Source: an uncultured virus (IMG/VR IMGVR_UViG_2061766007_000711) | Taxonomy: Duplodnaviria > Heunggongvirae > Uroviricota > Caudoviricetes | Reading direction: 5' to 3' (one strand) | IMG/VR virus record: IMGVR_UViG_2061766007_000711 | DNA length: 35,786 bases | In this document: one piece after another, positions 411 through 20,487 of the stretch | Position numbering within the stretch: the stretch's first letter is position 1 | Layout of the letters: each line of letters begins with the position of its first letter | Notes under the pieces: model-generated | What the model was told of the DNA's origin: nothing | Database searches by the model: none | What the model saw: the letters and a program-made list of their open reading frames with translations, nothing else | Position numbers and translations under genes: made by a program

Positions 411-1043
411 ATGGCAGATAATCAGGCACAGACCCAGTCGCAGGCACAGTACTACGACCACATGACGCTCCCGGGGAAGGGGCCGGTGTACTTCCGCGAC
501 GCGAAGTTGCTGAAGGGTAAGGACTTTTCCGTCTCCGGGGACATAGAGGCTGACCCGGTAAAGTTCGATGGCACCGGGAATGTCGACCTGGTGGCCCGGA
601 TAGGGACCGGGGTTGTCGGCATTGACAACATATCCGATGATGCAAAGGCGTCCGAAATCGACGAGGACGAGGGGAAGCTCGCCACGGTCGGCCTTGTCAA
701 GAAGTCCAGTTCGTTTGCTCTCGTCACCGCCAGGAAGCGGGGCGACGTATATGTTCCTGACCGTTCATTTATCGAGCTGGTCGGATACATTTCCCATGAC
801 ATACTTCCCGTACTGCGGGTCATAGACGGCATCAGGACATACAAGGTCGAGATGTCCTCCTTCGACGGTACGACCATCGAGTTCCGTGCTCCTGATGAGG
901 AGAATTCCACCGAGACCGGGAACAAGCGGGAGAGCGGGACTGTCACTAGAAGTTTCACATACAGGGCGGGAGGGTTCTCCCTGGTAACTAGGGATGTCAA
1001 GCCCGCGGCCTATTCGGTCGAGACCATTGACATAGGGGATTAG
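411..1043 (+). CDS. Fibre cluster gene F1 (fibre-associated structural protein)
   Basis: ATG at 411 (ORF track starts at TTG 408). FSVSGDIEADPVKFDGTGNVDL is a GD...FDG..NV fibre repeat. Ends VETIDIGD. Confidence 0.6.
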   Translation: MADNQAQTQSQAQYYDHMTLPGKGPVYFRDAKLLKGKDFSVSGDIEADPVKFDGTGNVDLVARIGTGVVGIDNISDDAKASEIDEDEGKLATVGLVKKSSSFALVTARKRGDVYVPDRSFIELVGYISHDILPVLRVIDGIRTYKVEMSSFDGTTIEFRAPDEENSTETGNKRESGTVTRSFTYRAGGFSLVTRDVKPAAYSVETIDIGD

Positions 1044-1046
1044 TGT

Positions 1047-1737
1047 ATGGCTGAATATGTACACAAGATTAACGGCAAGGACCTGGCTGCCTCGGCGGTA
1101 GTGCCCAACTCGGCGCTTGACCAGCGCATTACAAACATCGAGGAGTTCACTAATCTCGGCGCGTTCGAGATTGTTCCGCTGACAACCGGAGTGGACCCTC
1201 ATCCGGATGTGTTGAATCCGTCCAACAAGGTAATCTACTTGACCAAGGATACGAGCCTTCAGGTTGACGACCCGTATACCGAGTGGATTTATATACTCGG
1301 CGACCCGACCGCCGACCCTCCGACTAGCGACAGGTGGGAAATTATTGGTACTACTGCAATAAAGTTCCAGCGTGCCACCACCACGCAGGAAGGCGTCACC
1401 ATCCTGAACAGTAGTACGGTCGATGCACAGACCGGGGCCCTGTCGACTGACGAGACTATGGCGGTCACCGCGCTCGGCGTGAAGTCCGCGGTGGAGGCAG
1501 GCGTAGNNNNNNNNNNNNNNNNNNACTGCCGGAAACATCCCGGCATTGGACTCGAACGGAAACTTGGTGGACTCCGGGCTGTCCGCAGCGGCCTCAGTGC
1601 AAGGGGTGGTCGACGCGGCCGGTACGAACTTGGTGAATGGCACTACGCACGTGGCCACGATACCTACTGCGGTAGCGGGTGCTTCCGGTGCTCCCGGAAA
1701 CCTCGGACTGGTGACCATTTCGACTATAGACTTGTAA
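1047..1737 (+). CDS. Fibre cluster gene F2 (frame break at N gap 1507-1524)
   Basis: MAEYVHKING...IYLTKD...YTEWIY...WEIIGTT is a head/tail fibre-type motif. After the gap it continues in the 1546 frame, TAGNIPALDSNGNLVDSG...ISTIDL*. Confidence 0.65.
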
Positions 1738-1749
1738 GGAAACCGATAG

Positions 1750-1977
1750 ATGGCTGGCAATCAGCAGACATATGTACACGAGATTAACGGGATGCCCGTC
1801 GCCGCCTCCGAGGTGGTGCCGGGGAGTCCCATCGTAAAGGATGTCGAGCGCCAAGGCGATGACGGTACGGTGTCTGTAGTAAGTAACAATGTGGCTACCC
1901 TGGTGGACATGTCCCAGTCGGAAGTCAATGACGTGATTGCGTGGGTATGCGGAGCGCAGTCGGGAAATAACGGATAG
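1750..1977 (+). CDS. Fibre cluster gene F3, 75-aa putative adapter
   Basis: SD AAGGA upstream. N-terminus paralogous to F2 (YVHEING..AAS.VVP.S); C-terminus paralogous to F4 (MSQSEVNDVI). Confidence 0.65.
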   Translation: MAGNQQTYVHEINGMPVAASEVVPGSPIVKDVERQGDDGTVSVVSNNVATLVDMSQSEVNDVIAWVCGAQSGNNG

Positions 1978-1994
1978 GGTTTTGGAGGAATAAG

Positions 1995-4900
1995 ATGGCA
2001 CTGCCTACCAGTTCTAAGAATAACGTGACCGTCGGCAAGCTCGCCGCGACACTCAAGGGGATATATGACAATGTCGACGCCAAGAAGGCAGACAAGGTAG
2101 CCCAGGCTACCAATGGGAACTTCGCATCTCTTGACGGCAACGGCAACCTGGCCGATTCCGGACACAAGCACTCGGACTATGCCTCTTCCACGCAGGGTGG
2201 GAAGGCCGATACCGCCGTCCAGAGCGTCAAGATGGGGTCGAGTTCCGGAATAGAACTCAATGACAACACGTCGGTCGTAATCCCGAACGCCGTGGCCACC
2301 GGTACATCTGGGGCGACCAGCGGTGTTATGACCGCGGACGACAAGAAGAAGCTCAACGACATTGCGACGGGCGCCGAGGTCAACCAGAACGCGTTCAGTA
2401 ACGTCGTGGTCGGGCAGACTACCGTCGCCGCCTCGGCCAAGACGGATACGTTGACCATAGCCGGGGGCAAGTACACGTCGGTCGTCGGAAACTCAGCCGA
2501 CAAGAGCGTCACCATCGCAAGTACTCTGAAGAGCGAGACGGCAGTCCAGTCCGGTACCACGGAGTCGCTGGTGACTACCGGCGAGAAGTATACATGGAAC
2601 GCCAAGCAGGAACAGCTCACTTTCGACGGCACATACAATGCGTCCACCAACAAGGCCGCAACGGTAAGTTCAATCACGACGAGGATTGGCGCTCTTGATG
2701 TGTCCGACATTACGGCGAATCTCGGTGTCGGCAAGACGATTACCGCGCTGTCCGAGACTGACGGTAAGATTGCCGCCACGGCCTCCAATATCCAGATTAC
2801 CGAGTCCCAGGTAACCAACCTCACCAGTGACCTCGCGCTGAAGGCGCCACTGGCCAGTCCGGAGCTTACCGGTACGCCCACGGCCCCGACCGCGGCACAG
2901 GGCACCAACACTACTCAGATTGCAACTACCGAGTTCGTAGTCACCGAGATTGACGCGAAGATTGAGGAGCTCGGTGATGCGATGGTCTACAAGGGAACCC
3001 TGGCCGGCGGCAGTACCGGCTCATACGGCGCCCTTACGCCTGCGGCAAACAAGGGATGGACGTATAAGGTCACTACTGCGGGTAAGATTGACGGTGTCGC
3101 GGTCGAAGTCGGCGACATGCTCATATGTAATGCTGATAGCACTGCCGCTGCCACCTCGAGCAATTATACGACGATAGTCAACAAGTGGGATTTTGTCCAG
3201 AGCAACATCGACGGAGCAGTCATTGGACCGAGCTCTGCCGTTACTGATGCATCGGTTGCCGGGTTCGACGGCACTGCCGGTCGCAAGCTTAAGGCGCTTA
3301 CCGCGACGGAAATCAAGGCGGCAGCGGGCCTTAGCCTGGTAAAGAACCAGGCGATTACGGTAACGTCGACGAGCGTTTCCGACGGTACGAATACGTTCAA
3401 CAAGTATACCCACCCGACCACCACTGCTGTCGGAGCTGCCGCAGTAAAGGTCGGCAACGATGGTCTTGGCCATGTCGTCCTTGGTGCGGCACTTACCAAG
3501 TCCGATGTCGGACTAGGGAATGTCGCAAATACCGGTGACAGTGCCACGCCGGTGGAAGGCGGCACGACAAAGTTTACCACGGGTGGTGCCTACACTGAAC
3601 TTGCCAAGAAGGTCGACGTAGTAGAGGGCAAGGGGCTTTCGACCAACGACTATACTACGGCTGAAAAGAACAAGCTTGCTGGAATTGCAGCTGGTGCGGA
3701 AGTAAATCAGAATGCGTTCAGCAATGTAAAGGTCGGGAGTACCACTGTTGCTGCAGATACCAAGACCGATACCCTCGAGCTTGTTGGTTCGCAGCATATC
3801 ACTATTACGCCGGACGCCACGAACGATAAGATTACTATCGCGACGGATATTGCTGACCAGACTGCCTATTCGGCTAAGGGTTCTGCGACCAAGGTTCCGC
3901 AGATTACGACGAACAGTCTCGGCCAGGTAACTGGCATTACGGAAGTCACGATTAGCGGCGTTACCCCGGCAAGCCATACGCATGGAAATATTACCAACGA
4001 CGGTAAGATAGGGTCTACTGCCGACAGGTCAGTTGTGACAACTACCGGAGGTGCGGTTACTGCTGTTGATATGACAGTTTCATCCCCGACTGCGTCTGGT
4101 AATACTATATCATTCATCGATACTGTATCACAGTCGAGTAACGGTAAGATTTCTGCTACAAAGAAGACCGTTTCCACAATGGGATCCGCATCAGCCGATG
4201 CTGCCGGAACTGCCGGTTTAGTACCAGCCCCCGCAGCTGGAAAACAAAGCAGTTTCTTGCGCGGAGATGGTACATGGCAGACACCTACTGATAATAAGGT
4301 AAAACAAAATCTAGTTGCAGACACAACAGATGCCGAATATCCTGTTATATTGAAAAATAACACTACTGCAACAGATTCGCCTACTTCTACCGTTAATTAT
4401 GCTGCCGGGATTACGATTAATCCCAAGAATAAATCTGTCTCTGCGACAACGTTCATCGGCGCACTTTCGGGTACCGCCGATACGGCCAAGGCTTATGATA
4501 CCACGTTTACCGGAACAAATAGCATAAAGAGTGCTCTTGACGGAAAGGCGTCTTCCAGCCATACGCATGGCAACATTACCAATGGTGGTGCGCTTCAAAC
4601 GACGGACATCACTATAGCAAACGGCGACAAACTTGTTGTGACCGATGCATCGGATTCAAATAAGGTCGCTCGCACTTCCGTATCGTTCGACGGCTCTACC
4701 GCTACCAAGGCGCTTACCCAGAAAGGTACGTTCGAGACATTTACTAACGTAACGTCTTCGACAACGAACGGGCATATCAATATCAACGGTACCGATACGA
4801 CGGTATATACCCATCCTACTACGGCGGGAAACAAGCATATACCTACTGGTGGCTCAGCTGGTCAAGTGCTAGTATATGGCGGCAGTAGCGGAACCGCATC

Positions 4901-5249
4901 ATGGTCTACGTTAACCGATGCAAGCATGGGGCAGGGCTATTCTGCTACTACGTCATGGTCAAGCGCCGCATGTACGGTCACGATGTCCAATTACGAGTTG
5001 AAAACCGGCGGTATAGTAGCAATTAAGTTCTCTGCCAACGTTCCCGCTAATGCTACGCTGAACATAAATAGTAAGGGTGCGAAGAGCGTCTACTACCGCG
5101 GTGCGGCGATTACTGCTGGCATCATACAGAACGGCGACATCGCCTACTTCATGTATGATGGAACGAACTATGTATTGCTCGGTACCGACCGTAGTGTTGG
5201 TGAGATGACTGACCAGGAAGTTGCTGATATAATAGATGCATTGTCGTAA
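1995..5249 (+). CDS. Fibre cluster gene F4, long fibre shaft (1084 aa)
   Basis: SD GGAGG. T/S/A/G-rich. Fibre motifs KAPLASPELTGTPTAPTA...TQIATTEFV, GKGLSTNDYTTAEKNKLAGI, GAEVNQNAFSNV x2, HxH motifs, AGLVPAPAAG..FLRGDGTW. Confidence 0.85.
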   Translation: MALPTSSKNNVTVGKLAATLKGIYDNVDAKKADKVAQATNGNFASLDGNGNLADSGHKHSDYASSTQGGKADTAVQSVKMGSSSGIELNDNTSVVIPNAVATGTSGATSGVMTADDKKKLNDIATGAEVNQNAFSNVVVGQTTVAASAKTDTLTIAGGKYTSVVGNSADKSVTIASTLKSETAVQSGTTESLVTTGEKYTWNAKQEQLTFDGTYNASTNKAATVSSITTRIGALDVSDITANLGVGKTITALSETDGKIAATASNIQITESQVTNLTSDLALKAPLASPELTGTPTAPTAAQGTNTTQIATTEFVVTEIDAKIEELGDAMVYKGTLAGGSTGSYGALTPAANKGWTYKVTTAGKIDGVAVEVGDMLICNADSTAAATSSNYTTIVNKWDFVQSNIDGAVIGPSSAVTDASVAGFDGTAGRKLKALTATEIKAAAGLSLVKNQAITVTSTSVSDGTNTFNKYTHPTTTAVGAAAVKVGNDGLGHVVLGAALTKSDVGLGNVANTGDSATPVEGGTTKFTTGGAYTELAKKVDVVEGKGLSTNDYTTAEKNKLAGIAAGAEVNQNAFSNVKVGSTTVAADTKTDTLELVGSQHITITPDATNDKITIATDIADQTAYSAKGSATKVPQITTNSLGQVTGITEVTISGVTPASHTHGNITNDGKIGSTADRSVVTTTGGAVTAVDMTVSSPTASGNTISFIDTVSQSSNGKISATKKTVSTMGSASADAAGTAGLVPAPAAGKQSSFLRGDGTWQTPTDNKVKQNLVADTTDAEYPVILKNNTTATDSPTSTVNYAAGITINPKNKSVSATTFIGALSGTADTAKAYDTTFTGTNSIKSALDGKASSSHTHGNITNGGALQTTDITIANGDKLVVTDASDSNKVARTSVSFDGSTATKALTQKGTFETFTNVTSSTTNGHININGTDTTVYTHPTTAGNKHIPTGGSAGQVLVYGGSSGTASWSTLTDASMGQGYSATTSWSSAACTVTMSNYELKTGGIVAIKFSANVPANATLNINSKGAKSVYYRGAAITAGIIQNGDIAYFMYDGTNYVLLGTDRSVGEMTDQEVADIIDALS

Positions 5250-5261
5250 GGAGATAAGTGA

Positions 5262-6317
5262 ATGGCACTGCCTACATCGACGAATGATGTTACCGCACGT
5301 AAACTTGGGTCTGTAATCAACAGTCTCTGGACGAAGATTAAGTCTACCTTCGTCAAGAAGGCCGGTGACACGATGACTGGCCAGCTGGTGAACACCCTGG
5401 CTGACGGCAATTCCGCATTCGTTACCAGTCACGGTACGGCCAACAAGAAGTCCGCTGTCGGAGCCACCAGGACCGATACCGGGGTAAGCGTGTTCATGGG
5501 CGTAGGCTCAAGCGGTACGAACCACGGTGTCTACTCGGAGACCAACGCAAACTGGATTATCCGTGCCGACACTGCGGGCAACGTGGTAATCAACGATGGA
5601 AAGGCGACCAGTACTGTTACCATAGGTAACTCCGACATAGGCTCGACGACCAAGCCGGTCTATATTGATGACGGTGTAATCAAGGCCGGTTCCACCTACG
5701 CTGGTGGCACCGCAGTGACCCTCAACAATTCTTCCAAGGCCGGTTCTACGGCATCGTTCTATGCTCCTACTGCGGGCGGTACGGCTAACTATGTCCTCAT
5801 AGGCGCTGGTACTACGTCTGCACCTACCTGGGCGGAGAAGGCACCGAAGGCATCTGTTGCGGACTACGTGAACTTGCTTCATACCAACGAAGTAAACTTC
5901 AAGAATGTCCCCACCAGCGGTAACAAGGAAAGAGTCTGGTTCAATTATAGAAATGGTGATACTGATGCCGGCGATGCCAATAATCTGATTACGCAGTACT
6001 ACTTTGGCAATAGAAATCTCAGTACAGGTGGTGTAACTCTGATAGCGGACAACTTCAGCGGTAACGCGTCGACGGCCACAACGTCCACTAACTCCAATAA
6101 TACCAAGGTTACAACAGCTAATACAACCAAGACGTACCTGGCCGGAGCAAACGCTACCGGGTATACGTCTGGTGCACAGACGTCGCTACTTACCGACACC
6201 GGGATTTATGCGACGACCACCGCAGGCGAACTCAACGCCACCCAGTACAAGGTAAACGAGCACTGCACCATGAAGTACAACTCCACCAAGTCCTCGCTGG
6301 ACTTCACGTTCTCCTAA
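5262..6317 (+). CDS. Fibre cluster gene F5 (351 aa)
   Basis: SD AAGGAG. MALPTS N-terminus shared with F4; FVKKAGDTMTG fibre motif; ends CTMKYNSTKSSLDFTFS. Confidence 0.8.
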   Translation: MALPTSTNDVTARKLGSVINSLWTKIKSTFVKKAGDTMTGQLVNTLADGNSAFVTSHGTANKKSAVGATRTDTGVSVFMGVGSSGTNHGVYSETNANWIIRADTAGNVVINDGKATSTVTIGNSDIGSTTKPVYIDDGVIKAGSTYAGGTAVTLNNSSKAGSTASFYAPTAGGTANYVLIGAGTTSAPTWAEKAPKASVADYVNLLHTNEVNFKNVPTSGNKERVWFNYRNGDTDAGDANNLITQYYFGNRNLSTGGVTLIADNFSGNASTATTSTNSNNTKVTTANTTKTYLAGANATGYTSGAQTSLLTDTGIYATTTAGELNATQYKVNEHCTMKYNSTKSSLDFTFS

Positions 6318-6326
6318 GGAGTGACC

Positions 6327-8750
6327 ATGCCACTAAAGCTATGGCTTCCATTGGACGGTACGAACGAGAACCGGGGAATCTCCGGGGTGACCATGTCGGG
6401 CTCTCCCAACTCATGGGGCAACGGGAGAACCGGGAAGTGCGCTACGTTTAACAACAACACTGGCAACTGTATAGCGAACACGTCCAAGGAGTTCGACTAT
6501 ATCGTAGAGGACTTCTCTTGGGCAATCTGGGTAAAGAAGGACTACTCGGCCATCACATCGACGTCCATGTGGGTATTTACTGTAGGAAGAGCTGATGCCG
6601 GTGGAAGAGGCTACGGCATGCAGGCAGTATCTTCTACACAAGTAAGAATATGGTTTGGTACAAGTAACTGGAATATTAATTGCGCTGATAATGAATGGCA
6701 TCACTTTGCATTTACTAGGAAAGGTAAATCGCTTAAAATGTATCGTGATGGCACTCTTATTACTTCTGCAACTTTTGGAGGCACTCTTCCGTCATATTCT
6801 GATGGAAATGGTCCAGGTCTTGGATGTTTTCATTATACTGGAAATATCTATCCTCTTATTGGTTCTATATCGGACTTCAGGATATACAACCATACGCTGT
6901 CTGCCAAGGAGGTCTACGAGCTATCCAGGGCGCTGATAGTGCACTATCCGCTGAGCGCACCGGGGAACGCCAACCCGAACCTGCTGACGTGGACCAAGAA
7001 CTATACGGAGGCGAGTCCTCTAGTTCATACCAGTTCCGCCAAGGATGGGTACAAGTATCTTGGCGATGACGCTCTGATTACGGTAACACCGGGAAAGACC
7101 TACTACGTGCAGTTGAAATCCGACGGTACACTATCCGCTTCACATGCAAGTGGTGCAGGGGTAGTATCCGACAAATTCACGTTCTGGTTCTACATACGGA
7201 ATATTGGCACATCTAAGAACGTTGGCCAGTATGACCAGACAACATGCTTTACCAGCGCATCTACAGGCATTTTGGTCAACGACCCCGACAGACAGCTCTA
7301 TGTATGGAAGTGGACGGCCCCGAGCAACGCCCAGGACATCACCTTGCGCACCAACAGCTATTCCGACGGCACCACCGCAGTCACATTGAAGTTCTGGGAC
7401 TTCAAGATAGAGGAAGATACGTACACATCGTATGTCCCCTCGAAGAACTCCGCGCAGTACGGGGAACTCGGTTACGGCACCGGGACTGTCCGGGATGCTA
7501 CCGGGAGAGGGATTGACCTCAGTACAGTAGGTGCACCGGTGTTTTCCACTGAGTCTATCAGATACGCTACTGCAATTAATTTTAATAAAGCCGGATACCT
7601 GAAACTTTCTCCATGCACAATGTCATTGAGTACACTTAGTGTATCTTTTTGGTTCAATGCCAAGGATACCACTGGTTCGACACAGCATTTCCTGTTTGGT
7701 TCATTTGCCAGCTGGCCGAATGAGGGATTAGGAATTTACAGAGATATTGGTAAGAATTATTTTAACATAGTGTTCCGGACAGCGGGCGCTGAAACTACGT
7801 ATTGCTCGTGCGGTGGGCAGACATTCTCTTATAATGAATGGCACCATATGGCTTTCACGTGGGATGGCACTACCGTCAAGATATACTTGGATAATGTGTT
7901 GAAAACGACCAAAACGTATGGACAGTCCGGTACATGTGAATGGAAGAATATATTTCTCGGCAATTCGGCATATAACAGTACTCCGGCTTCAGAGACGGAA
8001 GACTGTAAAATGTCCGACTTCCGCATCTACGGGACCGCCCTGACCGCCGACGACGTCAAGTACCTCTACGAGACCTCGGCCGCCATCGACAACAACGGGG
8101 ACATGTTCGCGGATTCCTTTGAAGAGACCGAGCTGCTGCCACGCGTGGGCAAGGAAGGACTCGTCTACGGGAGCCACCTGTCAGAATCCGGGGGAACTAT
8201 AGCTGTATACCAGAATACAAGCAAGGGTCTGTTCGATCCGAATACCAAGAAATGGAGCTATACTCCCGCCGCAGATACAAACAACTCCTGTATGGATTTC
8301 GGTTTCTTTTGCCCTGAAGAGGGAGTTACCAAATACCATATTACTATGGTGGTCGAGTGGAGCGGATTTGCCGACATATTGACCACAAACCCGGATTTTA
8401 CCATAAATTTCCATGGGCCCAATTATATCATAGGTGGGACAACATACGAGTGGACGACTAATCCCATTTCGGCGGCATTGTACGCCATCAAGACGATGCA
8501 GTCGCTGGTTACCGGAGCGGCGTCCGGGGTGTATAAGTATGAAGCTGACTTTACGCTGAGTAGCGGTTGGCTAAATAGTTACTGGGCTTGCTACGTCGGT
8601 TTCCGGACCAACTACAGCAACGGCACGGGCAAGATTACCGCGTCGAAGCTCCGCATATACCCGGCGGACGAGCACATGGAGGATACTGCCTCCCTCTGCG
8701 CCTCCGGTGCCATCCAAGTGCGTCTGGCGGACGAAGTCAGCCTAGCCTAG
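6327..8750 (+). CDS. Fibre cluster gene F6, LamG/concanavalin A-like protein with inserted carbohydrate-binding-like domains
   Basis: Two LamG signatures (FSWAIWVK...WHHFAFT...MYRDG...GSISDFRIYNHTLS; SVSFWF...WHHMAFTWDG..VKIYLD...MSDFRIY..ALT). SD AAGGAG before ATG 6327. Confidence 0.85.
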   Translation: MPLKLWLPLDGTNENRGISGVTMSGSPNSWGNGRTGKCATFNNNTGNCIANTSKEFDYIVEDFSWAIWVKKDYSAITSTSMWVFTVGRADAGGRGYGMQAVSSTQVRIWFGTSNWNINCADNEWHHFAFTRKGKSLKMYRDGTLITSATFGGTLPSYSDGNGPGLGCFHYTGNIYPLIGSISDFRIYNHTLSAKEVYELSRALIVHYPLSAPGNANPNLLTWTKNYTEASPLVHTSSAKDGYKYLGDDALITVTPGKTYYVQLKSDGTLSASHASGAGVVSDKFTFWFYIRNIGTSKNVGQYDQTTCFTSASTGILVNDPDRQLYVWKWTAPSNAQDITLRTNSYSDGTTAVTLKFWDFKIEEDTYTSYVPSKNSAQYGELGYGTGTVRDATGRGIDLSTVGAPVFSTESIRYATAINFNKAGYLKLSPCTMSLSTLSVSFWFNAKDTTGSTQHFLFGSFASWPNEGLGIYRDIGKNYFNIVFRTAGAETTYCSCGGQTFSYNEWHHMAFTWDGTTVKIYLDNVLKTTKTYGQSGTCEWKNIFLGNSAYNSTPASETEDCKMSDFRIYGTALTADDVKYLYETSAAIDNNGDMFADSFEETELLPRVGKEGLVYGSHLSESGGTIAVYQNTSKGLFDPNTKKWSYTPAADTNNSCMDFGFFCPEEGVTKYHITMVVEWSGFADILTTNPDFTINFHGPNYIIGGTTYEWTTNPISAALYAIKTMQSLVTGAASGVYKYEADFTLSSGWLNSYWACYVGFRTNYSNGTGKITASKLRIYPADEHMEDTASLCASGAIQVRLADEVSLA

Positions 8751-8763
8751 CAAGTCCCAAACA

Positions 8764-8771
8764 GATAAACT
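8764..8771 (+). promoter_or_regulatory. Putative late promoter GATAAACT
   Basis: Lies in the longest (66-nt) spacer of the fibre cluster; GATAAACTGT is identical to 396-405. Confidence 0.55.
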
Positions 8772-8816
8772 GTAGAAACCGAAGGAAAGTATGTAATTTC
8801 CTCAAAAGGGACTGTT

Positions 8817-11800
8817 ATGGCAAACTTGGTAGATACTAGCGTGAATGGCGACCTCAGGGTGACCGGGACAATGTTCGGCACCCAGGCTGGCAACTATGCA
8901 ACCTGTGCGACTACGGCGGGTACCGCAGCCAAGGCGGTGACANNNNNNNNNNNNNNNNNNNNNNNNNCCGGTATCCACGTATTTGTCAAGTTCACCGTGA
9001 CCAATACGGCCGCAGTGGCGTCCCTTACCCTGAACGTGTCCGGTACCGGTGCGAAGGCCATGAAGTACCGTGGGGGAAACCTTCCCGCCGTAGGCACGCT
9101 GTCCGCAAGCAGGGTATACGAGTTCATCTACGACGGGACTAACTGGGAACTGGTTGGCGACCTCGACACTAATACCCAGACGGTCACCGGAGTGAAGGGT
9201 AATGCCGAGTCGTCGTACAGGACCGGCCAGGTAAATCTGACCGCTGCGAATATCGGGGCATCTGCCAGTGACCATACCCACGGGAATATCGGAACCGGTG
9301 GTACACTTACAGATACGGCAGCGGCAGCGGCCGGAAATGACTATGTGGTCATACGGGATGCTGACAACAATAAAGTACAGACTTCTACAATTAAGGGGAC
9401 CGATGTTGCCGATGCGGTAAGCAAGAAGCACAGTCATTCCACTCTAACGCTATCCACTACTGCGCAAGCCTATGATGGAACGCATACTCTAGCACTTCCA
9501 TCGTCTGACCCATATACTTCTGCAAGAACACCTACATCGCATACTCACGGAAATATTGCTAACGGCGGTACTCTTACTGATACGGCAGCGGCAGCAGCCG
9601 GNNNNNNNNNNNNNNNNNNNNNNNNNNNNNNNNATTCAAAGATTCAGACCTCTACAATAAAGGGTACCGACGTTGCTGACGCAGTTAGTAAGAAACATAG
9701 TCATTCCACTCTAACGCTATCCACTACTGCCCAAGCATATGATGGCTCTCATACATTGGCATTGCCGTCTACGGACCCCTATACTTCTGCAAGAACACCT
9801 ACTTCCCATGCCTCCTCGGCCACCACCTACGGTATAGGAACCACGGCAAACTATGGCCACGTAAAGCTGGACAACTCCACTCCTCTTGGTGTGACTGACT
9901 CAAATGCGGACGGCGTCGCTACAGGTAAGGGACACAAGCACAACAATATAGAATCTGTCGCGCGGGCTTCCGTTACTACGGTTGACCTGGACCATGTAAA
10001 TACCAACAACAGGGCGCACATGATACTTTCACAGGTATCTAGCTCTACAGGTACTACGCATGATCCAGGAGATGGTTACATGCTTACCTTTATGTGGGAC
10101 ACAAATGACCCATATGATGCGCAGTTATACATACCGGTTAATTCTACAAGAGATTGGGGTAGAATTAAAATAAGATACCGGGACAATAATAGTAGCGGAT
10201 GGGGTGACTGGGGATATATTAGGCTGGCTGCAACCAGTTCAATCCTTTACAGTTCAAATAATCTTGATAATGTCAAGGGGTCTACCGCTGGTCAGATATT
10301 AAGTTATAACTGGGCATCAAATTCAGTACCGACCAATGCCCCAGTAAGTTCAGCAACTTCAATGATGCTGGTATATCAACCGCATGCATCATATTGCTAT
10401 CAAGCTGTTATTACTGCACAGGATGGTATATACCGTAGAATATGCAAGAATGGCACATGGACTGCATGGACTAAGGATTTGGATGCGGCTGATATCACTG
10501 CCAGTAGCACCAACGGCAATCTTTCTGTCGCCGGCACGGATGTCACTGTATACACCCATCCGACTACTGCAGGCAACAAACATATACCTTCTGGCGGAAG
10601 TTCAGGGCAATTCCTCGGATGGGATTCAGCAGGTACTGCCAAGTGGGTGAGCAACCCAAATTCAGATACCAAAGTTAAGGCTACTGCAAAGACCGATAAT
10701 GTTAATTACAAGGTCCTTGCCACAGCATCGGCATCGCCTACTTCCGGTAATGCAACAGAAGCTATTTATGATACCGATATTTCGCTTAATCCATCGACTA
10801 ATACGATTACTGCAAATATATCGGGAAATGCAGCAACGGCAACTTCACTCGGTGTAAATGGAATTTCATATCATAGGCCAACTAGTTCTACGGGTTCAAC
10901 AGCTGATGGTAAGCAATGGTGTCGTCTTGGTACATTAACTGATACAGCAGTTACGGAAGGTGCACAATGGTTTGGAATCGGTGTACTATTCAATGTATAT
11001 TCAAACCCGTATGGCCCAGTGCGTACTCATTTTGGTTGTTATGAATTTTCATTCCGTATAGGTATATCTGCTAGAGCAGAAGGGGCGGCTGCCTATTCGC
11101 TCAAGACCAGCGGCGATATGACTATTCAGAAACTGTATGGCCCAGATGTACCTGCTTCTGCTGATGGCAAATCTGGTATAGATTTTCGCATAGTCCGTTC
11201 TGATACAAAGGTAGAATTATTTATAAAAAACTCAGTATGGGATTCCACGATTTATGTAGAACGATTCCGTCAAATAAATGGTGTCGGCAGCTATGGAACT
11301 TGGGAATGGGCCATTGCTAATGGGTTATATACTGATGATGAATTTGCTACATATTGTAGTGATAAGACCGTCAAGTATCTTACGAAGAAATATGAATTTA
11401 GGTCAAATTTAGCCGATTCTACTACATGGAACAACTTCTATAATGGTTATAAAGAAGTTACATTTGGGTCTTCAATTACATATGAAACATTCTGTGCTGC
11501 ATGTACTACTGCGGATTCGTTTGCCTATAAAACATTTGGAGATACCTTAGATACAACAGAAAAAACAATTAACGCCATCGGACGACTAAATTTATCATCT
11601 AATAGCGCAATTCAGACCGGTATAGGATTAACGGATGGATATCCTATGTTCCATGTTGTAGCCACAAGGCAAACTGGATATATGGATATTTCATCCGGTA
11701 GTACTATTGTACGATATAAATTCAGCAGATACGGTGCATTATCTAATAAGGTAACTATAAGTACAGGTGATACCAAGGTAACGCAGACCGCCGATAACGG

Positions 11801-13048
11801 CAGNNNNNNNNNNNNNNNNNNNNNNNNNNNNACTGCTGACAATACTACGAGAACCGAAGCTTCTCGTAAGTCTAGTAAGCTCACCTTCCAGCCAAGTACG
11901 GGTACCCTTACAGCAACCAAGTTCAGCGGTCCACTTACTGGTAACGTCACCGGTGACTGCTCCGGTTCTTCCGGTTCGTGTACGGGTAATGCCGCTACAG
12001 CCACTTCGGCTGGTAAGCTTACTACTGCCAGGAAGGCCTATGTAACGCTTGGCACTGCAAGTACTACGACTACGGTTGACTGGAGTGCTGACCCGACGAC
12101 TATCCCGGTAGACGGCACTCTTGCTGTTTCCCATGGCGGTACCGGCATTACTACCTCGACCAATGTCAATGCGGTTGTAATAGGTAATAGCACTACGGCC
12201 ACCAACGCGATGCAGACGGTACGTACCGGCAACGGCGCTTTCTACGCAACTGCACAGGATGCCAAGCCGCAGTTCGGAACCTTGCCTGCAGCCCAGGGTG
12301 GTACTGGTAAGACTTCTGCTAAGGATGCCTGTAATTCCTTTATAAATGCACTCGATACTGGTTCATCTACGCCGGTTGATGCCGACTACTACGTATCCCA
12401 ATACGTAAGCGGTGGAACAACAACAACGACGTATCACCGTAGACCCATGAGCGCACTGTGGACATATATTAAGGGCAAGATGACGTCCGATACCGGTGTG
12501 AACATCTCCGGCAATGCGGCTACAGCCACTTCGGCAACTAACGTTGCATTGACAGGTTCAGTAAAGACAACCAGTACCACCAATGGCGATACAATCCAGT
12601 TCCAGGCCGGAAGCGGTACAGCTGGAACGGTTACTATTGTCAATGCGAAGCATGCTGCCAGCGCAGACTCGGCGACCTCCGCGTCGTCCGCCTCCAAGGT
12701 CACGAACAAGCTGACGCTGAAGATAAAGACCGGCACTACCGAAGGAACCGACCTTTATACATATGACGGCAGCGGGGCCAAGACCCTCGACATCAAGCAG
12801 GGTTCCAACATTACGCTTACGGCGGCAGCCGGCTCGCTNNNNNNNNNNNNNNNGGGTCGACCGACACGTCGAGCAAGATATTCCTTATCGGCGCGACATC
12901 CCAGGCGGCAAACCCGCAGACATATAGTCAGGACACGACATACGTGGATACGGACGCTACCCTTGCATCCACTAAGGTCAGGGTTGCCGAAAAGTGTACC
13001 CTGCAGTTCAACACCACGACCAACGCACTGGACTTCGTGTTTGCATAG
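8817..13048 (+). CDS. Fibre cluster gene F7, long fibre with several N gaps
   Basis: T/S/A-rich shaft with a ~90-aa tandem repeat, HxH motifs and GNAATAT repeats. After the gap ending 12852 the coherent frame reads GSTDTSSKIFLIGATSQAANPQTYS...EKCTLQFNTTTNALDFVFA*, stop at 13046-13048. The ORF-track end at 13172 is a gap artefact. Confidence 0.8.
9270..9810 (+). repeat. Tandem ~270-bp (90-aa) direct repeat within F7
   Basis: HTHGNI..GGTLTDTAAAAA...K(V/I)QTSTIKGTDVADAVSKKHSHSTLTLSTTAQAYDG(T/S)HTLALPS(S/T)DPYTSARTPTSH occurs twice. The second unit starts before the gap at 9602 but spans it. Confidence 0.7.
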
Positions 13049-13058
13049 GAGAAAACCG

Positions 13059-16000
13059 ATGCCTCTAAGAATATGGCTTCCGTTGAACAACTCCTACGAG
13101 AACCGAGGAATAGATGGTTCGNNNNNNNNNNCCTTTCCCAGAAGGAGGTCGTGGAACTGGCCAAGGGGATGATGCTCCATATCCCCATGTACGCCGGATA
13201 TCCGGGCATAGGCACCAATATAGCCAAGAGCACCTCGGCGACACCGGTGGCATATTCAATCGGCCAGTACTACACTAGGATGCAGTACGATACCAACTTC
13301 TACGGTCTGAAGGCCGGCGACACATTTACCTTCGGGTTCAAGGTTACTGCGCCGGCAGACCGTGGAATCTACGCTCGCGTCCAGTACTATACCGACGGCG
13401 ACCACCGTACCAGCGTANNNNNNNNNNNNNNNNNNNNNNNNNNNNNNNNNNNNNNNNNNNNNNNCACAGCGTGGCTATACGCAGATGGAACTGCTCATCA
13501 CCAGTGCCAACAATAGCCTTACTACATCGGCAACGTGCTATGTCAGCGAGGTCAAGCTGGAACGGAGTTCCGTCAGGACTCCGTGGTCACCGGACGCGTC
13601 AAGCAGCCAGTTTACGTCGGACTATTCAATAAAGGACTGCTCGGGATACCAGGTCCCAATAGGCACTACCGGTACTGTCCCGTCAGTAACCGGTGATNNN
13701 NNNNNNNTGCCACCTGTTCCGGCTCGGTGACTACAGAAGGCGGTTCCCCCAGGAACACCAGGGCGTTCAAGTTCAGCGACGGTGCATGCTTGTGGCCAGT
13801 TCCGGACCCAATAAAGTCCACCACTACCGAATTTACCATATCGGTATGGTTCAAGACTACTACAACCAGTGGAAACCAGTGCATATGGAACGGCAGGAGC
13901 AGTAGCAGCTCCGGAAGCACGGCGGTCGGCANNNNNNNNNNNNNNNNNNAACCAGACATCTTCGGTATCCGTTTCGGCCAATACATGGTATCACCTGGCC
14001 GTAACATGGAAGTCCGGGGGAAACAAGGTCATATACCTGAACGGCCAGCAGAAGACATCGGTTGCCGCGGGNNNNNNNNNNTCGAGACTCCCGGTAAGCT
14101 CTCGGCATACTGCTGGAGATCCTCGGCGAGGATAAGTGTGCCTTATACGTACGGTTCCACTGAGCGTCTCAGCGTATGCATGTGGATAAAGCCAAACTCG
14201 GCAAGTGCCTGGACATCAATCTTTGGTTGGGGAAACACGAGTACGAGACAGAACAGAATTGAGGTCAATGCAAATGCCGGTACCACGTATTACTTCTTCG
14301 GTTCCAATGACTGTCTGGTCAACAGTAATCTCAGAGTTGCCGAGAATTTTACGAATGCCGTATGGCATCATTTCGCGATGGTTGCCGACGGAACCATTGT
14401 TAGGTTCTACCTGGATGGCGCTCTGAGCAAAACTGTTACTCAGAAGAGCCAGGTATCCGCGACGTTCGACGGCACCAACACATTCTACTTCGGTGGGTAC
14501 AGCGACAACTACAACGGTTACTACAACGATGTACGAGTCTATGACCACGCCCTCTCCCAGAAGGAGGTCGCCGAGCTGGCCAAGGGGATGATGATTCACT
14601 ATACCCTGGACAACCCGTACACCACCGGTATATACAATTTCTATTCCGGCACGCAGGCACATGGAGGCAGTCCAAGCTATAATTCGAACTGGACTGTGAC
14701 TAAGCTTGCCGATGAAGATGGGTATAATTTTAGTGGCTCCAGAACAGGTAATGGCGGAAACAGTTGGCCCAATTTTGGGTATGCCTCTATAAACCGTTCG
14801 AATTTTACGGCAGGCAAGAAATATACTTGGTCTGCAAAGATTCGCTGTCATACGTGGACCGCCGGTTCGTTGGCTCTGCGAAATTCCATTTCGAGCAATG
14901 ACTATACCAACGGAAGTGTGAACGTATGTTCTACTTCCCTTGCCGACAACCAATGGCACCAGTATAGCAGAACTATAACCCTTACAGAGGGTATGAAGAT
15001 TGGCTCTACGTTCTACTATTTGACTGAAGAGGCATATAACGCATCTACCGAGACTGCAAAGGCATATATGTCGCCACGTGTCGAGTTCTACTGTTCAAAC
15101 CAGAATGGCGACGGTACAGTATACAACATGGATTTCGACATCAAGGAGGTCCAGTTAATCGAATCCGACTCCTTTCCGGGATGGGTGGACAACACGATGG
15201 CGTCCAATACCGTGCGCGATAACACCGGACGCGGTAACGACGCCACTTGTTCCGGCTCGGTGACTACGGAAGGCGGTTCTCCCAGGAACACCAGGGCGTT
15301 CAAGCTGCTCGACACGTCATACATCCAGTATCCGGTGCCTGCCGGAATATCCCAGTGTACAATCGCTTTCTGGGTGAAGAGAACGGGAGGCGGAGCGCAC
15401 TCTACCGTAGACTGCCTGAAGAATAGCCCGGCCGGCGGGATGTGGCTCGGAGTAAATATTGAAAGCAGTAAACTGTGGGCCTACTGGGGAGGTACCTACA
15501 ACAAGGTAAGTGGTTCCCTTACGGCTAATACATGGTATCACGTGGCGTTGACTTTCAATGCCGGAGTAACCCAATGGTACCTGGATGGTGTAGCCGTCGG
15601 GTCCGCCGTGGATTTTTCCGCCAAGGGTACTACATGGCCATCCGGCACCCGAGCAATAGGAAACAGCTATACCGGTTCTACATGGAATACCAAGTTCAGT
15701 GGTTCGTTCTCCGACTGGCGTTTCTATACGACGGTATTGACCGCCGCCCAAATCAAGGAGCTCTACAACGCGCCCATCTCGGTGGCGAATACCGGCGCCT
15801 GCCTCTCCGAGCAGTTCACCGAGGGCGCTGCCGGTATCTCCTTCGCAAAGACAGGGGTAGTCTCCTGTAACGGAATCTCCTCCCTGCCCGGAAAGTACGA
15901 CCCGGAAGTCCTCATAGAGCCCGACGGCTCCTGCTGGGCGCACATCGGGCACCATGCCGACCCAGGTTCTTACAAGTTCGCCTCCACGGATACGTTTTCA

Positions 16001-16486
16001 ACCGGCGTATGGAAGGATGCCAGGCGGTTCCTGGACCCGACCGTGTGCGACAAGGTGGACAAGTGGGAGTTCATTGTTGAGCAGAGAACTACTTCGTCGG
16101 CCACTGTGCAGCGGTTCCGGTGGGTACAGTCGGTAAACCCGAATACTGCAACATACAGCAATACGGTGGCGGCAAACATCACCCGGTACGGTACGGCATA
16201 TGGGTACGACAATTCTTCTTACGGCGGAATGTATAACTTCGGAAATACGAATACATCATACTACGTATGCAACAACGGGAACAACGGAAACTGGTACGGG
16301 GCTATCGGGTGCACCAAGGATTTCAACACGGGTATTCCGGGATATGCCGGTGCTACCATCAAGGACGGCGGGTATGTCGACCTGTACATCAGGGTCGATA
16401 ACGTTACTTGGACCACCGGACTGTCCGGGTGCTCCCTGGACAAGGGCGGCAAGGGGGTCCTGTCGCCGGAATTTGTGGAACAATAG
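13059..16486 (+). CDS. Fibre cluster gene F8, LamG-like protein paralogous to F6 (13122-14091 is a gap-ridden mosaic)
   Basis: Starts MPLRIWLPLNNSYENRG after SD AGGAG. LamG motifs WHHFAMVADG..FYLDG...DVRVYDHALS and WYHVALTF...YLDG...SDWRFY..LT. Uninterrupted from ~14092 to the stop at 16486. Confidence 0.75.
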
Positions 16487-16515
16487 AATAGTTTTGGGGA
16501 AGAAAGAGGGAAATT

Positions 16516-18408
16516 ATGGCACAGCTTAACGATACGATGGTGCAGGGAGACCTGAGGGTCACCGGGAACATCTACGGTCCGCTAAAGGGAAATGCCGATA
16601 CAGCCACGACCGCCCAGGCATATGACACGTCATTTACCGGGACGAACAGCATAAAGTCCGCACTAGATGGTAAGAAGAACACACAGAGTGCCGTTTCTGA
16701 CCCTACGGCGTCTGGAAACTCGTTGACATTCATTGCCACGATTTCACAGAACGCGCAGGGTGTTATTACCCCGACAAAGCGTACAGTATCTACGATGGGC
16801 GCCGCTACCAGCAGTGCTGCCGGAAGTGCTGGCCTAGTACCTGCTCCTGCAGCAGGGGCGCAGGGCAAGTTCTTGCGAGGAGATAAAACCTGGGCGACGC
16901 CTACCGATAGCAAGGTGAAGGCGACCGCTGCGACCACCGATGGACCGTACTATATTCTTGCGGCATCAAGCCCAACCCATACCACCGGCAATACTACCGA
17001 GGCGGTGTATGTTTCCGGTATTACCATCACGCCATCCAACTCTACGATAGCTGCCGGTTTCTTCAATGGCAATGCTGACAGTTCCAATAAGGTGCTTATT
17101 ATTAATCAGCCGGAGCAATCTGCGGTAGACCATACGTCCTATGTTGTTGGGTGGGATGGTAATAACGCTCCGCTATCCAATCCTTCTACTCCGGTACGGA
17201 ACGCGCGGGTATGGATGACTCTGCGGCAGAACACCGGAGGTAACGCAGAATCTTATCTATATTGCGATAATCTGCGCGTATTGAACATTGATACGACCTG
17301 TGGGTTTGAACCGCTGTTGACTACTGAGAGGTATTTTACATGGTATGATGTTAACCAGGCGGGTACTGGAGTTACAGAAAGGGCACTGTATGGGATAGGA
17401 AGCCTGGATTCTACTCAGTCACCTCTTTGCCCGTATAAGTTTGAGGGGTTTGGACTATTGTTTAGTACTCCAACGAAACTTCTTAGGTACAAGTCAAGCT
17501 ACGTTATAGTCAACGGTTCATTAGGGGATATGTCTACTATTGATTATACTTATAATACGATGTGGTTCAGGGGAACTGCTTATGCTGCAACCAGGCTAGC
17601 AAAGTCGATAAATGACAGCGGGTATGCCGTTTTCGGACAGGTAGGAAGTTCAAGCCAGCCAATCTATCTGGATTCGAACGGTTTACCGGTAACATGCAAT
17701 ACCATCCCGGCTGCTGCAAACAATGGTGCCCTCAAGCTTCAACTGAATGGTGGGACGGCAAGCAACATTTTCACAGCCAACCAGAGCGGTACATCCACTC
17801 TTGCTTTTGAGACTGGTAGCACCGCCGGCACATTCAAGGTGAATTCCACGGAGATTTCCATTGCGGGTTGGAGCACCCTGAACAGCCTGGCTACGAACGA
17901 GAATAAGTACTTCCATACGCATCACTTGGAAACGTCATCCTTTACGACATCATCTGGTACAAGCGTTGTAACTGACTTTTTGACAGTAACCTTTTCTGGC
18001 CGTGTTGGACGCTCGTCGGCAATCGTACTTATTGGTGCCGGCAGCGGATATAGGTCAAGTGCATACCGGCTGTCATGGTTTTTTACGACCAATGGTTCTA
18101 TCAGTGATGTAAAGACCCAGTTATTTACATATGATGATATATCTAAGCTTCCCGCAGTTTACTTTGATACTAACAGTTTCTATCTTGGGTTAGAAAACGC
18201 CGGCAACTGGACGGCTAACATAGCCCTGGTGATTGCATGTGAAAATCCGGGTAATGTCACATACGGTACTGCGACACGTACTGCAGTTACTGCGGGGTCG
18301 GCCACTAAAAAGAATTTTACTGACCACGCGGTATACTCGGAAACAATCACTACTATTGTGAAGGACACCGTGGTAGGTACTGACCCGAACACTCTATATA
18401 TTGTGTAG
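16516..18408 (+). CDS. Fibre cluster gene F9, distal fibre (630 aa)
   Basis: N-terminus MAQLNDTMVQGDLRVTG is paralogous to F7; shares shaft modules with F4; ends TDPNTLYIV, a common fibre C-terminal motif. Confidence 0.8.
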   Translation: MAQLNDTMVQGDLRVTGNIYGPLKGNADTATTAQAYDTSFTGTNSIKSALDGKKNTQSAVSDPTASGNSLTFIATISQNAQGVITPTKRTVSTMGAATSSAAGSAGLVPAPAAGAQGKFLRGDKTWATPTDSKVKATAATTDGPYYILAASSPTHTTGNTTEAVYVSGITITPSNSTIAAGFFNGNADSSNKVLIINQPEQSAVDHTSYVVGWDGNNAPLSNPSTPVRNARVWMTLRQNTGGNAESYLYCDNLRVLNIDTTCGFEPLLTTERYFTWYDVNQAGTGVTERALYGIGSLDSTQSPLCPYKFEGFGLLFSTPTKLLRYKSSYVIVNGSLGDMSTIDYTYNTMWFRGTAYAATRLAKSINDSGYAVFGQVGSSSQPIYLDSNGLPVTCNTIPAAANNGALKLQLNGGTASNIFTANQSGTSTLAFETGSTAGTFKVNSTEISIAGWSTLNSLATNENKYFHTHHLETSSFTTSSGTSVVTDFLTVTFSGRVGRSSAIVLIGAGSGYRSSAYRLSWFFTTNGSISDVKTQLFTYDDISKLPAVYFDTNSFYLGLENAGNWTANIALVIACENPGNVTYGTATRTAVTAGSATKKNFTDHAVYSETITTIVKDTVVGTDPNTLYIV

Positions 18409-18416
18409 GTAGAAAT

Positions 18417-19373
18417 ATGGCTGGTGTACTTCTTGAATCAGTTGAAGTTGACGAAGGAGAATATTACGGTGGATTGCGGGCGGTCAAGATATATGACGCC
18501 TCGCTGTACTGGTATAATGTATCGAGCGGAGAGCGGCATGGGCTTGGTATAATCGGCGTGGGGCGTGATGATGGCGGCCGTGACATATTGCTACCTAGCC
18601 TGGATTGGGAGCGGGATATCTGTGCGTATACGCTTGGAGGGGGATATTTCAGAGACAAAAGCTGTCCGAATGTTACCATTGGTTCCAATGGTGTCATTGC
18701 CGTTTCATCTAGCATGATGTGCTTCAACTACAATAAGGCCATTTCCTTATGGTTGAATGCTTCACTTGGAATATATTGTGCATCTACGCCTGGGTATACT
18801 GACAAGTTGCGTGCGCGAGATTATAGTACATATGACTCCTCACTTCACCGCAGGGCTGGCCAGAGCGGGGTAGTTGATACTGACACGGTTGTTGACCCAA
18901 ACCATAACTATGATTATTTTCCGCGGCCAAGCCTGTTTTTTTATGATATAACAAATTCATACGTTCCTACGTATTGTTCCTTGCTGGCGTGCAAAAATAT
19001 ATACGTAGATGATGTTCTGCTGAGACACGGGCAGAATGACCCTGCTTCAGCGGGCTGGGATGACTTTGTTCCGAGAGTGGCTAGTAAGATTCCCGGTGTT
19101 ATGAGTTACGGACCAACATTTTATGTACCGTCCGTCACAGGTTCATTGGGACAGATGCAATTCTTGAACCGATATATTGGAACTATAGAGATTGACGGAG
19201 ATTCTTATAATCTTCATATGGTGAATATTGACTATCCGCGTACCTTACTGTATGCCAACTGTAAATATGCGGAGACACCATTGTATAAGATAAACCGCAA
19301 CGATACATCAAAGGGCGGAAAGATGTACATTCTCGATGAATGGGTGACGCTGCATAAGCCAAATCAAGTCTAG
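18417..19373 (+). CDS. Fibre cluster gene F10, putative tip/receptor-binding protein
   Basis: Last gene of the cluster; aromatic-rich with AT-rich codons; SD-like AGGT upstream. Function inferred from position only. Confidence 0.5.
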   Translation: MAGVLLESVEVDEGEYYGGLRAVKIYDASLYWYNVSSGERHGLGIIGVGRDDGGRDILLPSLDWERDICAYTLGGGYFRDKSCPNVTIGSNGVIAVSSSMMCFNYNKAISLWLNASLGIYCASTPGYTDKLRARDYSTYDSSLHRRAGQSGVVDTDTVVDPNHNYDYFPRPSLFFYDITNSYVPTYCSLLACKNIYVDDVLLRHGQNDPASAGWDDFVPRVASKIPGVMSYGPTFYVPSVTGSLGQMQFLNRYIGTIEIDGDSYNLHMVNIDYPRTLLYANCKYAETPLYKINRNDTSKGGKMYILDEWVTLHKPNQV

Positions 19374-20487
19374 CGCTTCCCGGTATCTCCCGGTTTCCCC
19401 CGGCGTCTCCCCATGCGCCTCCCGGGCTTGCCCCGCCTTACACCGGGTCTTTTTCTCACGCTGCCGTCTCGGTTGAACTCCAGCGGCTTCCCGTCCTCCC
19501 CGGCGGCGACCTGGGCGACCCCGAGTTCTGCCAGCCTGGATATCGAACGTTGCTTCGTGGCTAGGNNNNNNNNNNNNNNNNNNNNNNNNNNNNNNNNNNN
19601 NNNNNNNNNNNNNNNNNNNNNNNNNNNNNNNNNNNNNNNNNNNNNNNACCTTGCGATGGCCGGGGTGTCGTCCCGGGAGATGCCGGGGAACCCCAGTGCG
19701 TCCAGTAGCATGTGCATCGGCTTCAGCTTGGAGCGCTCGACGGACTTCACCATGATGTACGCGTCGGTGTAGGTGTTGTGGCATGCCTCCATGAAGTCCC
19801 CTATGTCCAGCTCGTACAGGTCGACTACCGAGTGAATCTTCCCGGCGGCCATCAGCATCCTGATGGTATCCTCCGTGATTCCGGGTATGGCCATCCCGCC
19901 GACTGCCACGAACTTCCTCAGTGCCTCCCCGGCATGCACCTCGCAGTCACTGTTTGGGCATACGAGTTCCGGACGGTGTCCCTGAAAACGGCGCATGAGC
20001 GCCGCCGAGCAGAACGGACACGTGACCGGTTCCGTGAAGAACTCGACTGTCTTTNNNNNNNNNNNNNNNNNNNNNNNNNNNNNNNNNNNNTCGATACAGG
20101 ATGAAAGCTCGGGGTTCTTCCCGAGTTCTTTCCGGAGGGTTACGGTGCAGCCTCGGTGGAGGCCGAGGAACCCGGTGATGCCCCAGTGCGGGACAGGGCA
20201 GCGGAACAGGGCGTGCCTGTCGAGGTCGTGGCAGCGGATGGTGGCAACCGGCACTATTGCTCCGGCGAGCCCGGCAACCGGTTCAAGGGTGACAAGCTCG
20301 GCGCATATCTCCTCGGCGCACTCATGAATATCCCCTGCGACCGGTTCCAGTGAGGCGGCACACGCCTCGAACTCTATGGCTAGCATGGACAGCAGTTCGA
20401 AGATTGTCTCGTGAACTACCGGGAAGCCCGCGGCTGCTTCGGNNNNNNNNNNNNNNNNNNNNNNNNNNNCTGGAAGGCGTTAATCAT
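19370..20487 (-). CDS. Degenerate NAD-dependent DNA ligase-like protein (OB/Zn finger/HhH portion)
   Basis: LEPVAGLAGAIVPVAT (OB-like), PVTCPFC...CPNSDC (Zn finger), IPGITE...IHSVVDLYEL and ALGFPGI (HhH). Frame is open to the gap at 20443; candidate start ATG 20487 lies across the gap. No KxDG motif visible. Confidence 0.65.

Follow-up and report, generated by a model that had tools for sequence, protein, structure and literature searches.

The tail fibre cluster studied here belongs to an uncultured virus of the Caudoviricetes (IMG/VR record IMGVR_UViG_2061766007_000711), of which a stretch of 35,786 nucleotides (nt), hereafter the window, was analysed. Ten co-directional genes, F1 to F10, occupy positions 411-19373 with intergenic gaps of 3 to 66 nt; the cluster is present as described in an earlier reading of the same DNA (the original prediction), and all the terminal peptides quoted there were found. 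Comparison of gene ends establishes that these peptides fall into motif classes, called alpha, beta, gamma, delta and epsilon, that cognate C- and N-terminal classes are adjacent in many distant phages from gut, rumen and marine habitats, and that the motifs occur strictly at protein termini, with conservation at the protein level. We lean towards the view that the cluster encodes a serial or branched multi-protein tail fibre assembled in gene order, with LamG proteins as joints. The N-terminal element of each protein would attach to the C-terminal element of the protein encoded before it. The order would run from F1 (base) through F2, F3 (small adaptor), F4 and F5 (fibre segments) to F6 (LamG connector or lectin), F7 (fibre), F8 (LamG) and F9 (terminal fibre), F10 being unplaced, and the LamG proteins would serve as joints and, probably, as sugar-binding modules.

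The window carries 28 runs of N. F2, F7 and F8 were read in pieces because the reading frame is not continuous across these runs, and the pieces were joined with X for local comparisons only. The genes of the cluster are as follows.

F1, 411..1043, plus strand: protein of 210 amino acids (aa) without family match; alpha C-motif ..SVETIDIGD at 1017-1040.
F2, 1047..1737, plus strand: two pieces (1047-1505 and 1525-1737) flanking a run of N; alpha N-motif MAEYVHKINGKDLAASAVVPNS; C-terminus ..ISTIDL.
F3, 1750..1977, plus strand: small adaptor-like protein of 75 aa; alpha N-motif at 1771-1827; beta C-motif MSQSEVNDVI at 1909-1938.
F4, 1995..5249, plus strand: fibre of 1084 aa; beta N-motif MALPTSSKNNVTVGKL..; beta C-motif MTDQEVADII at 5205-5234.
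F5, 5262..6317, plus strand: mosaic fibre of 351 aa; beta N-motif; gamma C-terminal module with the end EHCTMKYNSTKSSLDFTFS at 6258-6314.
F6, 6327..8750, plus strand: protein of 807 aa with two Laminin_G_3 domains; its start MPLKLWLPLDG.. is the first strand of LamG domain 1.
F7, 8817..13048, plus strand: fibre of at least 1376 aa, in five pieces between runs of N; delta N-motif MANLVDTSVNGDLRVTG at 8817-8867; gamma C-motif EKCTLQFNTTTNALDFVFA at 12989-13045.
F8, 13059..16486, plus strand: LamG protein of at least 1112 aa, in six pieces; N-terminus MPLRIWLPLNNSYENRGIDG; C-terminus ..GVLSPEFVEQ.
F9, 16516..18408, plus strand: fibre of 630 aa; delta N-motif MAQLNDTMVQGDLRVTG; C-terminus ..VVGTDPNTLYIV, of the epsilon class.
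F10, 18417..19373, plus strand: protein of 318 aa, last co-directional gene of the cluster; no family match in Pfam, PHROGs or an atlas search.

Within the window, the terminal 40 aa of the proteins were compared by Smith-Waterman alignment, with 45 pairs per end and 300 shuffles per pair. At the N-termini z exceeded 3 in 4/45 pairs, and these are exactly the four that had been claimed: F2/F3 (z 14.1), F4/F5 (6.9), F6/F8 (14.8) and F7/F9 (14.6), none of them matched by any of the 300 shuffles. At the C-termini three of the 45 pairs exceeded the same value, namely F5/F7 (12.2), F3/F4 (4.3, reached in 1/300 shuffles) and the unclaimed F6/F7 (3.5). The proposal of four junction types, each occurring twice, is thus borne out on the N-terminal side, while on the C-terminal side the gamma pair is strong, the beta pair is weak and the alpha and delta pairs were not recovered.

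The gene interiors had been described as different, which is only partly true. F4, F7 and F9 have common fibre modules in their interiors (F4 and F9 show 53% identity over 137 aa; F4 and F7 match with E 1e-29), and F6 and F8 have LamG domains in common (E 5e-29). The spacers are indeed unlike one another, except for a GGAG-like ribosome-binding site. In the shared motifs, conservation is found mostly at first and second codon positions, the third being the least conserved. For instance, the two delta N-motifs have 13, 15 and 8 identical bases of 17 at codon positions 1, 2 and 3, respectively, and the same codon is used for 8/13 identical residues. Recent tandem duplication without selection, which had been named as a possible source of the junction similarity, was rejected since synonymous sites and spacers have diverged. 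Judged by these codon patterns, the terminal motifs are under protein-level selection.

The gamma end was followed outwards from F5. This protein is built of modules of about 70 aa, and 343 metagenomic proteins match it at E<=1e-3 (8000 scored candidates). Its last ~70 aa form the extreme C-terminus in 11 matched proteins with differing N-terminal sequences; three of these, P0022, P0004 and P0027, share its last 34 aa without a change. When used for scans, the gamma C-module gave 6 viral and 21 metagenome loci. Downstream of the gamma end there is a LamG gene with the start M[APS]L..W.PL.G and then, usually, a fibre gene with the start MA.L.D..V.GDLRVTG.

When distinct sequences are counted, and gamma-C fibres are required to have at least 600 nt downstream, a gamma-C fibre is followed by a LamG gene in 27/32 cases and a LamG gene is preceded by a gamma-C end in 22/23. 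The LamG gene stands before a delta-N fibre in 17/18 cases, the sole miss being locus L030, and a delta-N fibre comes after the LamG gene in 16/20. Of the five gamma misses, at least two or three seem to be artefacts of gene calling, due to a GTG start in L004 and to the genetic-code call in L026 and probably in L030. A separate scan with the delta N-motif gave 10 loci, all with a LamG gene immediately upstream (10/10), and a gamma C-end precedes this LamG gene in 8/10; the two loci without it, L041 and L042, are near-identical to each other.

F6 and F8 are members of the Laminin_G_3 / concanavalin A-like lectin superfamily. Laminin_G_3 is the only Pfam family found in the cluster, with nothing in the remaining 8/10 proteins, and PHROGs added only weak matches to virion-structural and unannotated families. 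F6 matches PF13385 in two stretches (E 1.6e-35, 122.9 bits against a cut-off of 27.6), and the largest piece of F8 gives a match of the same type with 127.4 bits, also in two stretches, its smaller pieces matching more weakly. In the structural model of F6, residues 1-210 are predicted to be all-beta, forming a beta-sandwich jelly-roll (predicted local distance difference test score, pLDDT, of 60-93 by block). The top fold matches of this model are neurexin LNS, laminin LG and a GH43 carbohydrate-binding domain (5hon_A, target-normalised TM-score 0.72), that is, generic LamG/ConA-like folds. The model is poor beyond LamG domain 1, with a mean pLDDT of 57.6.

The gamma/LamG/delta triplet recurs in dozens of contigs, whose best reading is obtained under code 11, with TGA read as W or with TAG read as Q, all three being represented. 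Contigs L004, L009, L010 and L040 belong to the TAG=Q group and L013, L036-L039, L043 and L044 to the TGA=W group; their long genes are open only when TAG or TGA is translated as a residue. Since related fibre clusters are present in these recoded contigs, the motif pairs span phages with recoded stop codons. A complete record of 288,789 bp (G001) encodes, in this order, a fibre of 2760 aa with its own N-terminus and a gamma C-end, a LamG protein, a fibre of 570 aa with a delta N-motif and a gamma C-end, a second LamG protein, and a fibre of 951 aa with a delta N-motif and without a gamma C-end. The same first, middle and last pattern of ends is repeated by F5, F7 and F9 of the window, and it is what serial or branched assembly would predict. 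The closest relative of the window that was found is the 284-kb contig Ga0310696_10000024 (L017), in which the F5 end and the termini of F6, F7 and F8 are near-identical. The F7 counterpart has 926 aa there versus at least 1376 aa in the window; therefore, fibre length varies among close relatives while the ends are fixed.

The same gene order could also arise, although we regard this as unlikely, from parallel fibre cassettes, in which each fibre would sit on the baseplate or hub through its N-motif, the next gene would provide its own tip adhesin or assembly factor (the LamG protein), and junctions would recur by tandem cassette duplication and synteny. The LamG gene can close the array (4/20 are without a following delta fibre), the fold is of the lectin type and suited to receptor binding, and LamG C-termini are poorly conserved within the window. 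A fibre with a downstream adhesin or chaperone is an established arrangement: in gp37-gp38 of T4 and T2, and with Tfa in lambda, P2 and Mu, the fibre C-terminus and the next gene product form a functional pair, and the succession of gamma C-end and LamG protein is reminiscent of a fibre tip and its adhesin. However, another fibre usually comes after the LamG protein and has a dedicated N-motif, and LamG genes precede delta-N fibres almost without exception in both tallies given above. Neither the differing N-terminus of first fibres nor the loss of the gamma C-end on last fibres is predicted by parallel cassettes, and 38 proteins of the beta class, many of them tiny non-fibre adaptors, have the C-motif only. 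No match to the Tfa or gp38 families was found for F6, F8 or F10 in Pfam or PHROGs.

The beta motifs of the window are divergent members of a widespread pair, in which an end ..I[ST]xxEIDxLF is followed by the start MAKYLDxxGLxxLWxKIK. MSQSEVNDVI of F3 and MTDQEVADII of F4 align to the column block ITNxEIDxI, and the N-termini of F4 and F5, apart from a 12-residue insertion, can be aligned with the MAKYLD class. Scanning for the canonical start gave 55 viral loci, where the upstream gene typically ends in ..I[ST]xx[ED]I[DE]x[IL]F. Counting used strict regular expressions, which the beta motifs of the window do not match. Among 186 distinct adjacent gene pairs from these loci, both motifs are present in 41, the C-motif only in 10, the N-motif only in 10 and neither in 125 (odds ratio 51, Fisher p 3e-22), and most of the one-motif 'exceptions' look like regular-expression or start-codon misses. 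The beta pattern was also found in 14/15 loci of an independent collection of genome contigs, which had been placed in bins of Fibrobacter, Bacteroidales, Prevotella, Lachnospiraceae and Mollicutes, among others. Because the binning of phage contigs is unreliable, no host can be read from these labels. Co-adjacency of motif pairs in other genomes had been proposed as a check on the original prediction, and it is found at the beta junction as well as in G001 and in a further genome, G005, described below.

Terminal motifs could instead be intrinsic folding or trimerisation caps, whose pairing would be only apparent because paralogous fibres lie in tandem, an explanation that we consider quite improbable. 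Beta N- and C-motifs do co-occur within single proteins above chance (22 with both, 32 with N only, 38 with C only and 148 with neither; odds ratio 2.7, p 0.004), and motif similarity correlates within proteins (Mantel r 0.26, n=28 proteins). However, coupling is about 20-fold stronger across junctions, which makes it a property of the junction and not of each fibre. Against caps, the motifs also occur singly, in the C-only and N-only proteins, and on non-fibre proteins. Many of the C-only proteins have just 55-134 aa, are not fibres and lie immediately upstream of the first beta-N fibre, and the partner of the gamma C-end is a non-fibre LamG protein. The likening of F3 to a plug converter, with an alpha motif at one end and a beta motif at the other, fits with how common these small proteins are.

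A profile of the beta N-motif gave 482 matches at E<=1e-3 among 1.84 billion representative proteins; of the best 150 matches, 147 begin no later than residue 8. Among 465 distinct open reading frames (ORFs) of at least 100 aa from all loci, there is one with an internal motif, which is ambiguous and depends on the genetic-code call. The occurrence elsewhere of cognate pairs fused in one ORF, another check that had been suggested, found no support, as no clear fused form of the beta pair was seen in these 465 ORFs or in the best 150 profile matches. When a canonical beta fibre was compared with isolated phages by tblastn, only interior collagen-like or fibre modules were matched. Recombination linkers, i.e., gene-end homology islands for swapping fibre interiors without any binding role, would suit the strong mosaicism (F5 consists of modules common to hundreds of proteins) and the identical gamma C-modules on proteins with unrelated N-terminal sequences, but they are very improbable given that protein-level conservation of the motifs spans three genetic codes and widely differing base compositions, that diverged synonymous sites and spacers are a poor substrate for homologous recombination, and that strict terminal placement and the lack of fusions would be left unexplained.

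A collinear relative of the cluster is present in G005 (267,826 bp), in which the order and end classes of F1-F9 are kept (alpha/alpha/beta/beta/gamma/LamG/delta), with one LamG round versus two in the window. Its genes are the following.

Gene 1: 118 aa, end ..KIRTIDLDD; counterpart of F1.
Gene 2: 375 aa, start MSTYVYQING.. and end ..TTINDDE...
Gene 3: 84 aa, start MSTYVSTIND.. and end ..ISTSEIEGLFT; counterpart of F3, with an alpha N-end and a beta C-end.
Gene 4: 580 aa, start MAKYLDLNGL.. and end ..ITDAEIEALE.
Gene 5: 641 aa, start MAKYLNLQGL.. and end ..FNTTTNALDFVFA.
Genes 6 and 7: LamG protein of 833 aa, then a delta-N fibre of 1370 aa.

Segments with 57-69% identity to F4 and F8 are found in G005: F4 shows 68% identity over 207 aa to the 580-aa fibre, and F8 shows 69% over 768 aa to the LamG protein. 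F2 and the 375-aa protein are 32% identical. A scan of viral contigs with the alpha N-motif gave no match, so the alpha class is known only from the window, G005 and the protein P0030.

The junction between F9 and F10 had been taken as single, which was not upheld: the C-terminus of F9, VVGTDPNTLYIV, belongs to the widespread epsilon class, present in 11/119 F5 homologues and in 34 viral loci. These loci (L102-L135) are mostly small viral contigs, with fibre ends of the form ..GTD[AP]NT[IL]YF... In 27/34 of them the downstream region was followed. The epsilon motif lies at most 4 residues from the C-terminus in 19/27 loci, and in 14 of these 19 the next gene is at most 12 nt away and has the start MP..K.G.T[DE]I...G...VY.G. 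The N-terminus of F10 is unlike the starts found after epsilon ends in other loci (z <=1.6), and F10 thus does not have the start that would match the end of F9.

The boundaries of the arrays fit a chain, with a first protein that has a C-motif and no N-motif and a last fibre that has an N-motif and no C-motif. Gene ends that act as connectors are the simplest account, because they would explain the coupling at junctions, the terminal placement, the protein-level conservation on mosaic interiors, the array boundaries and the small adaptors. We infer that cognate ends would bind physically and in a class-specific manner, in a geometry that may be a chain or include branches. The one very long appendage of the original prediction would be one possible geometry, a branched fibre being another.

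Several observations weigh against gene ends as connectors. The counts come from motif-selected and partly related loci that are not independent events, and conserved synteny inflates them. Class-internal specificity does not follow from the Mantel test, because its excess across beta junctions (r 0.36, n=51) over the within-protein value is modest. The alpha and LamG C-motifs are weak, and within the window the alpha C-pair F1/F2 and the delta C-pair F6/F8 are at chance level. In the F6 model, the gamma N-motif is the first beta-strand of LamG domain 1 (strand residues 3-7) and no dedicated plug. LamG C-termini elsewhere have a loose end ..[FL]-h-E-x, where F6 has none, and the 4/20 LamG genes without a following delta-N fibre keep the same C-end. 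Finally, in many loci the gamma-C fibre and the LamG gene are separated by an extra small gene (66-117 aa), and strict adjacency is therefore not required. Examples are found in L004 (5126-5479), L015 (783-1034) and L011 (4141-4341), with starts such as MYKLVFADGTELEGLERLNYSTFE and MFSLQLADGTLIDGLKRINPSTFE; the product of this gene, which the window does not have, could be an assembly factor.

The T4 long tail fibre is the closest analogue of collinear end-to-end assembly. Its proteins, gp34-gp35-gp36-gp37, are encoded in a row and joined end to end in gene order, with gp35 as a non-fibrous joint between trimeric segments, a joint that the LamG proteins might resemble. However, the window has more segments, its motif classes are re-used within the cluster and across unrelated phages, and the putative joints are multi-domain LamG lectin-like proteins. 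None of the 20 pieces matched the gp34, gp35, gp36 or gp37 families in Pfam or PHROGs. An analogy, with no homology claimed, can also be drawn with the docking domains of modular polyketide synthases, where cognate C- and N-terminal elements of successive polypeptides enforce order, although the proteins and their biology are unrelated.

Docking by short N-terminal peptides has been reported between phage receptor-binding proteins. Secondary receptor-binding proteins in the G7C, K1-5/SP6, Klebsiella KP32/KP34, Menlow and PhiK64-1 groups dock through short conserved N-terminal peptides on a T4gp10-like branching domain of the preceding protein (PMC6872550). Two other reports describe branched complexes in the Ackermannviridae tailspike, RaK2 and phiKp24, with standard units re-used for complex fibres (PMC13352976, PMC11414711). 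These anchor-branch systems are alike in having a short conserved N-terminal peptide and a variable centre, the motifs here being of 17-35 aa on mosaic proteins; the socket there is a T4gp10-like domain near the N-terminus of the first protein, whereas the candidate socket here is the extreme C-terminus of the upstream protein (PMC6872550). The logic here would also differ in being that of a collinear chain, with at least five motif classes. No T4gp10-like domain was matched in the cluster by Pfam or PHROGs, the published work having used searches at the level of HHpred (PMC6872550). The supposition that such a code had not been described before is thus qualified by these docking peptides and stands for the motifs themselves: no description of the beta N-motif, of the present motifs or of the fibre-LamG-fibre arrangement was found in the open-access literature, subscription journals and supplementary files being outside its scope.

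A broader possibility, which we put forward tentatively, is that tailed phages of gut, rumen and marine habitats might have a small vocabulary, readable from sequence, of at least five matched docking pairs that would specify the assembly order of fibre segments, adaptors and lectin joints. The five pairs would be alpha, beta, gamma with LamG, LamG with delta, and epsilon with the MPxxKxG.T.. start. Were this vocabulary real, the architecture of multi-gene fibres could be read from gene ends, and segments could be swapped as if they were parts with standard connectors. In uncultivated phages, most fibre genes are without annotation. If the motifs are connectors, sequence alone would predict which proteins form one appendage and in what order, the shuffling of fibre interiors without breaking assembly would be explained, and short peptides would be singled out for studies of binding and structure.

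The window comes from a large phage genome, and the surroundings of the cluster include pieces of an NAD-dependent DNA ligase, a head maturation protease, a late sigma factor and an Hsp20-like gene. Searches of isolated phages by megablast and tblastn gave no relative of the cluster or of F9 and no close relative of the window. The start of the cluster abuts a homing endonuclease gene (C-terminal part, positions 3-386), and in L009 a gene at 7000-7614, GIY-YIG-like by eye from its N-terminal sequence, lies between the LamG gene and the next fibre; cluster boundaries seem to be targeted by mobile endonucleases. The ligase-like gene at 19649-20440, on the minus strand, is convergent with the cluster end and broken by runs of N. 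Positions 26001-28000 form a low-GC island (GC 0.34 versus 0.50-0.59 in the neighbouring 2-kb windows), which contains a transposase gene on the minus strand (26713-27507; PHROG 506, E 5e-84) between long runs of N and is probably an insertion element in the phage genome.

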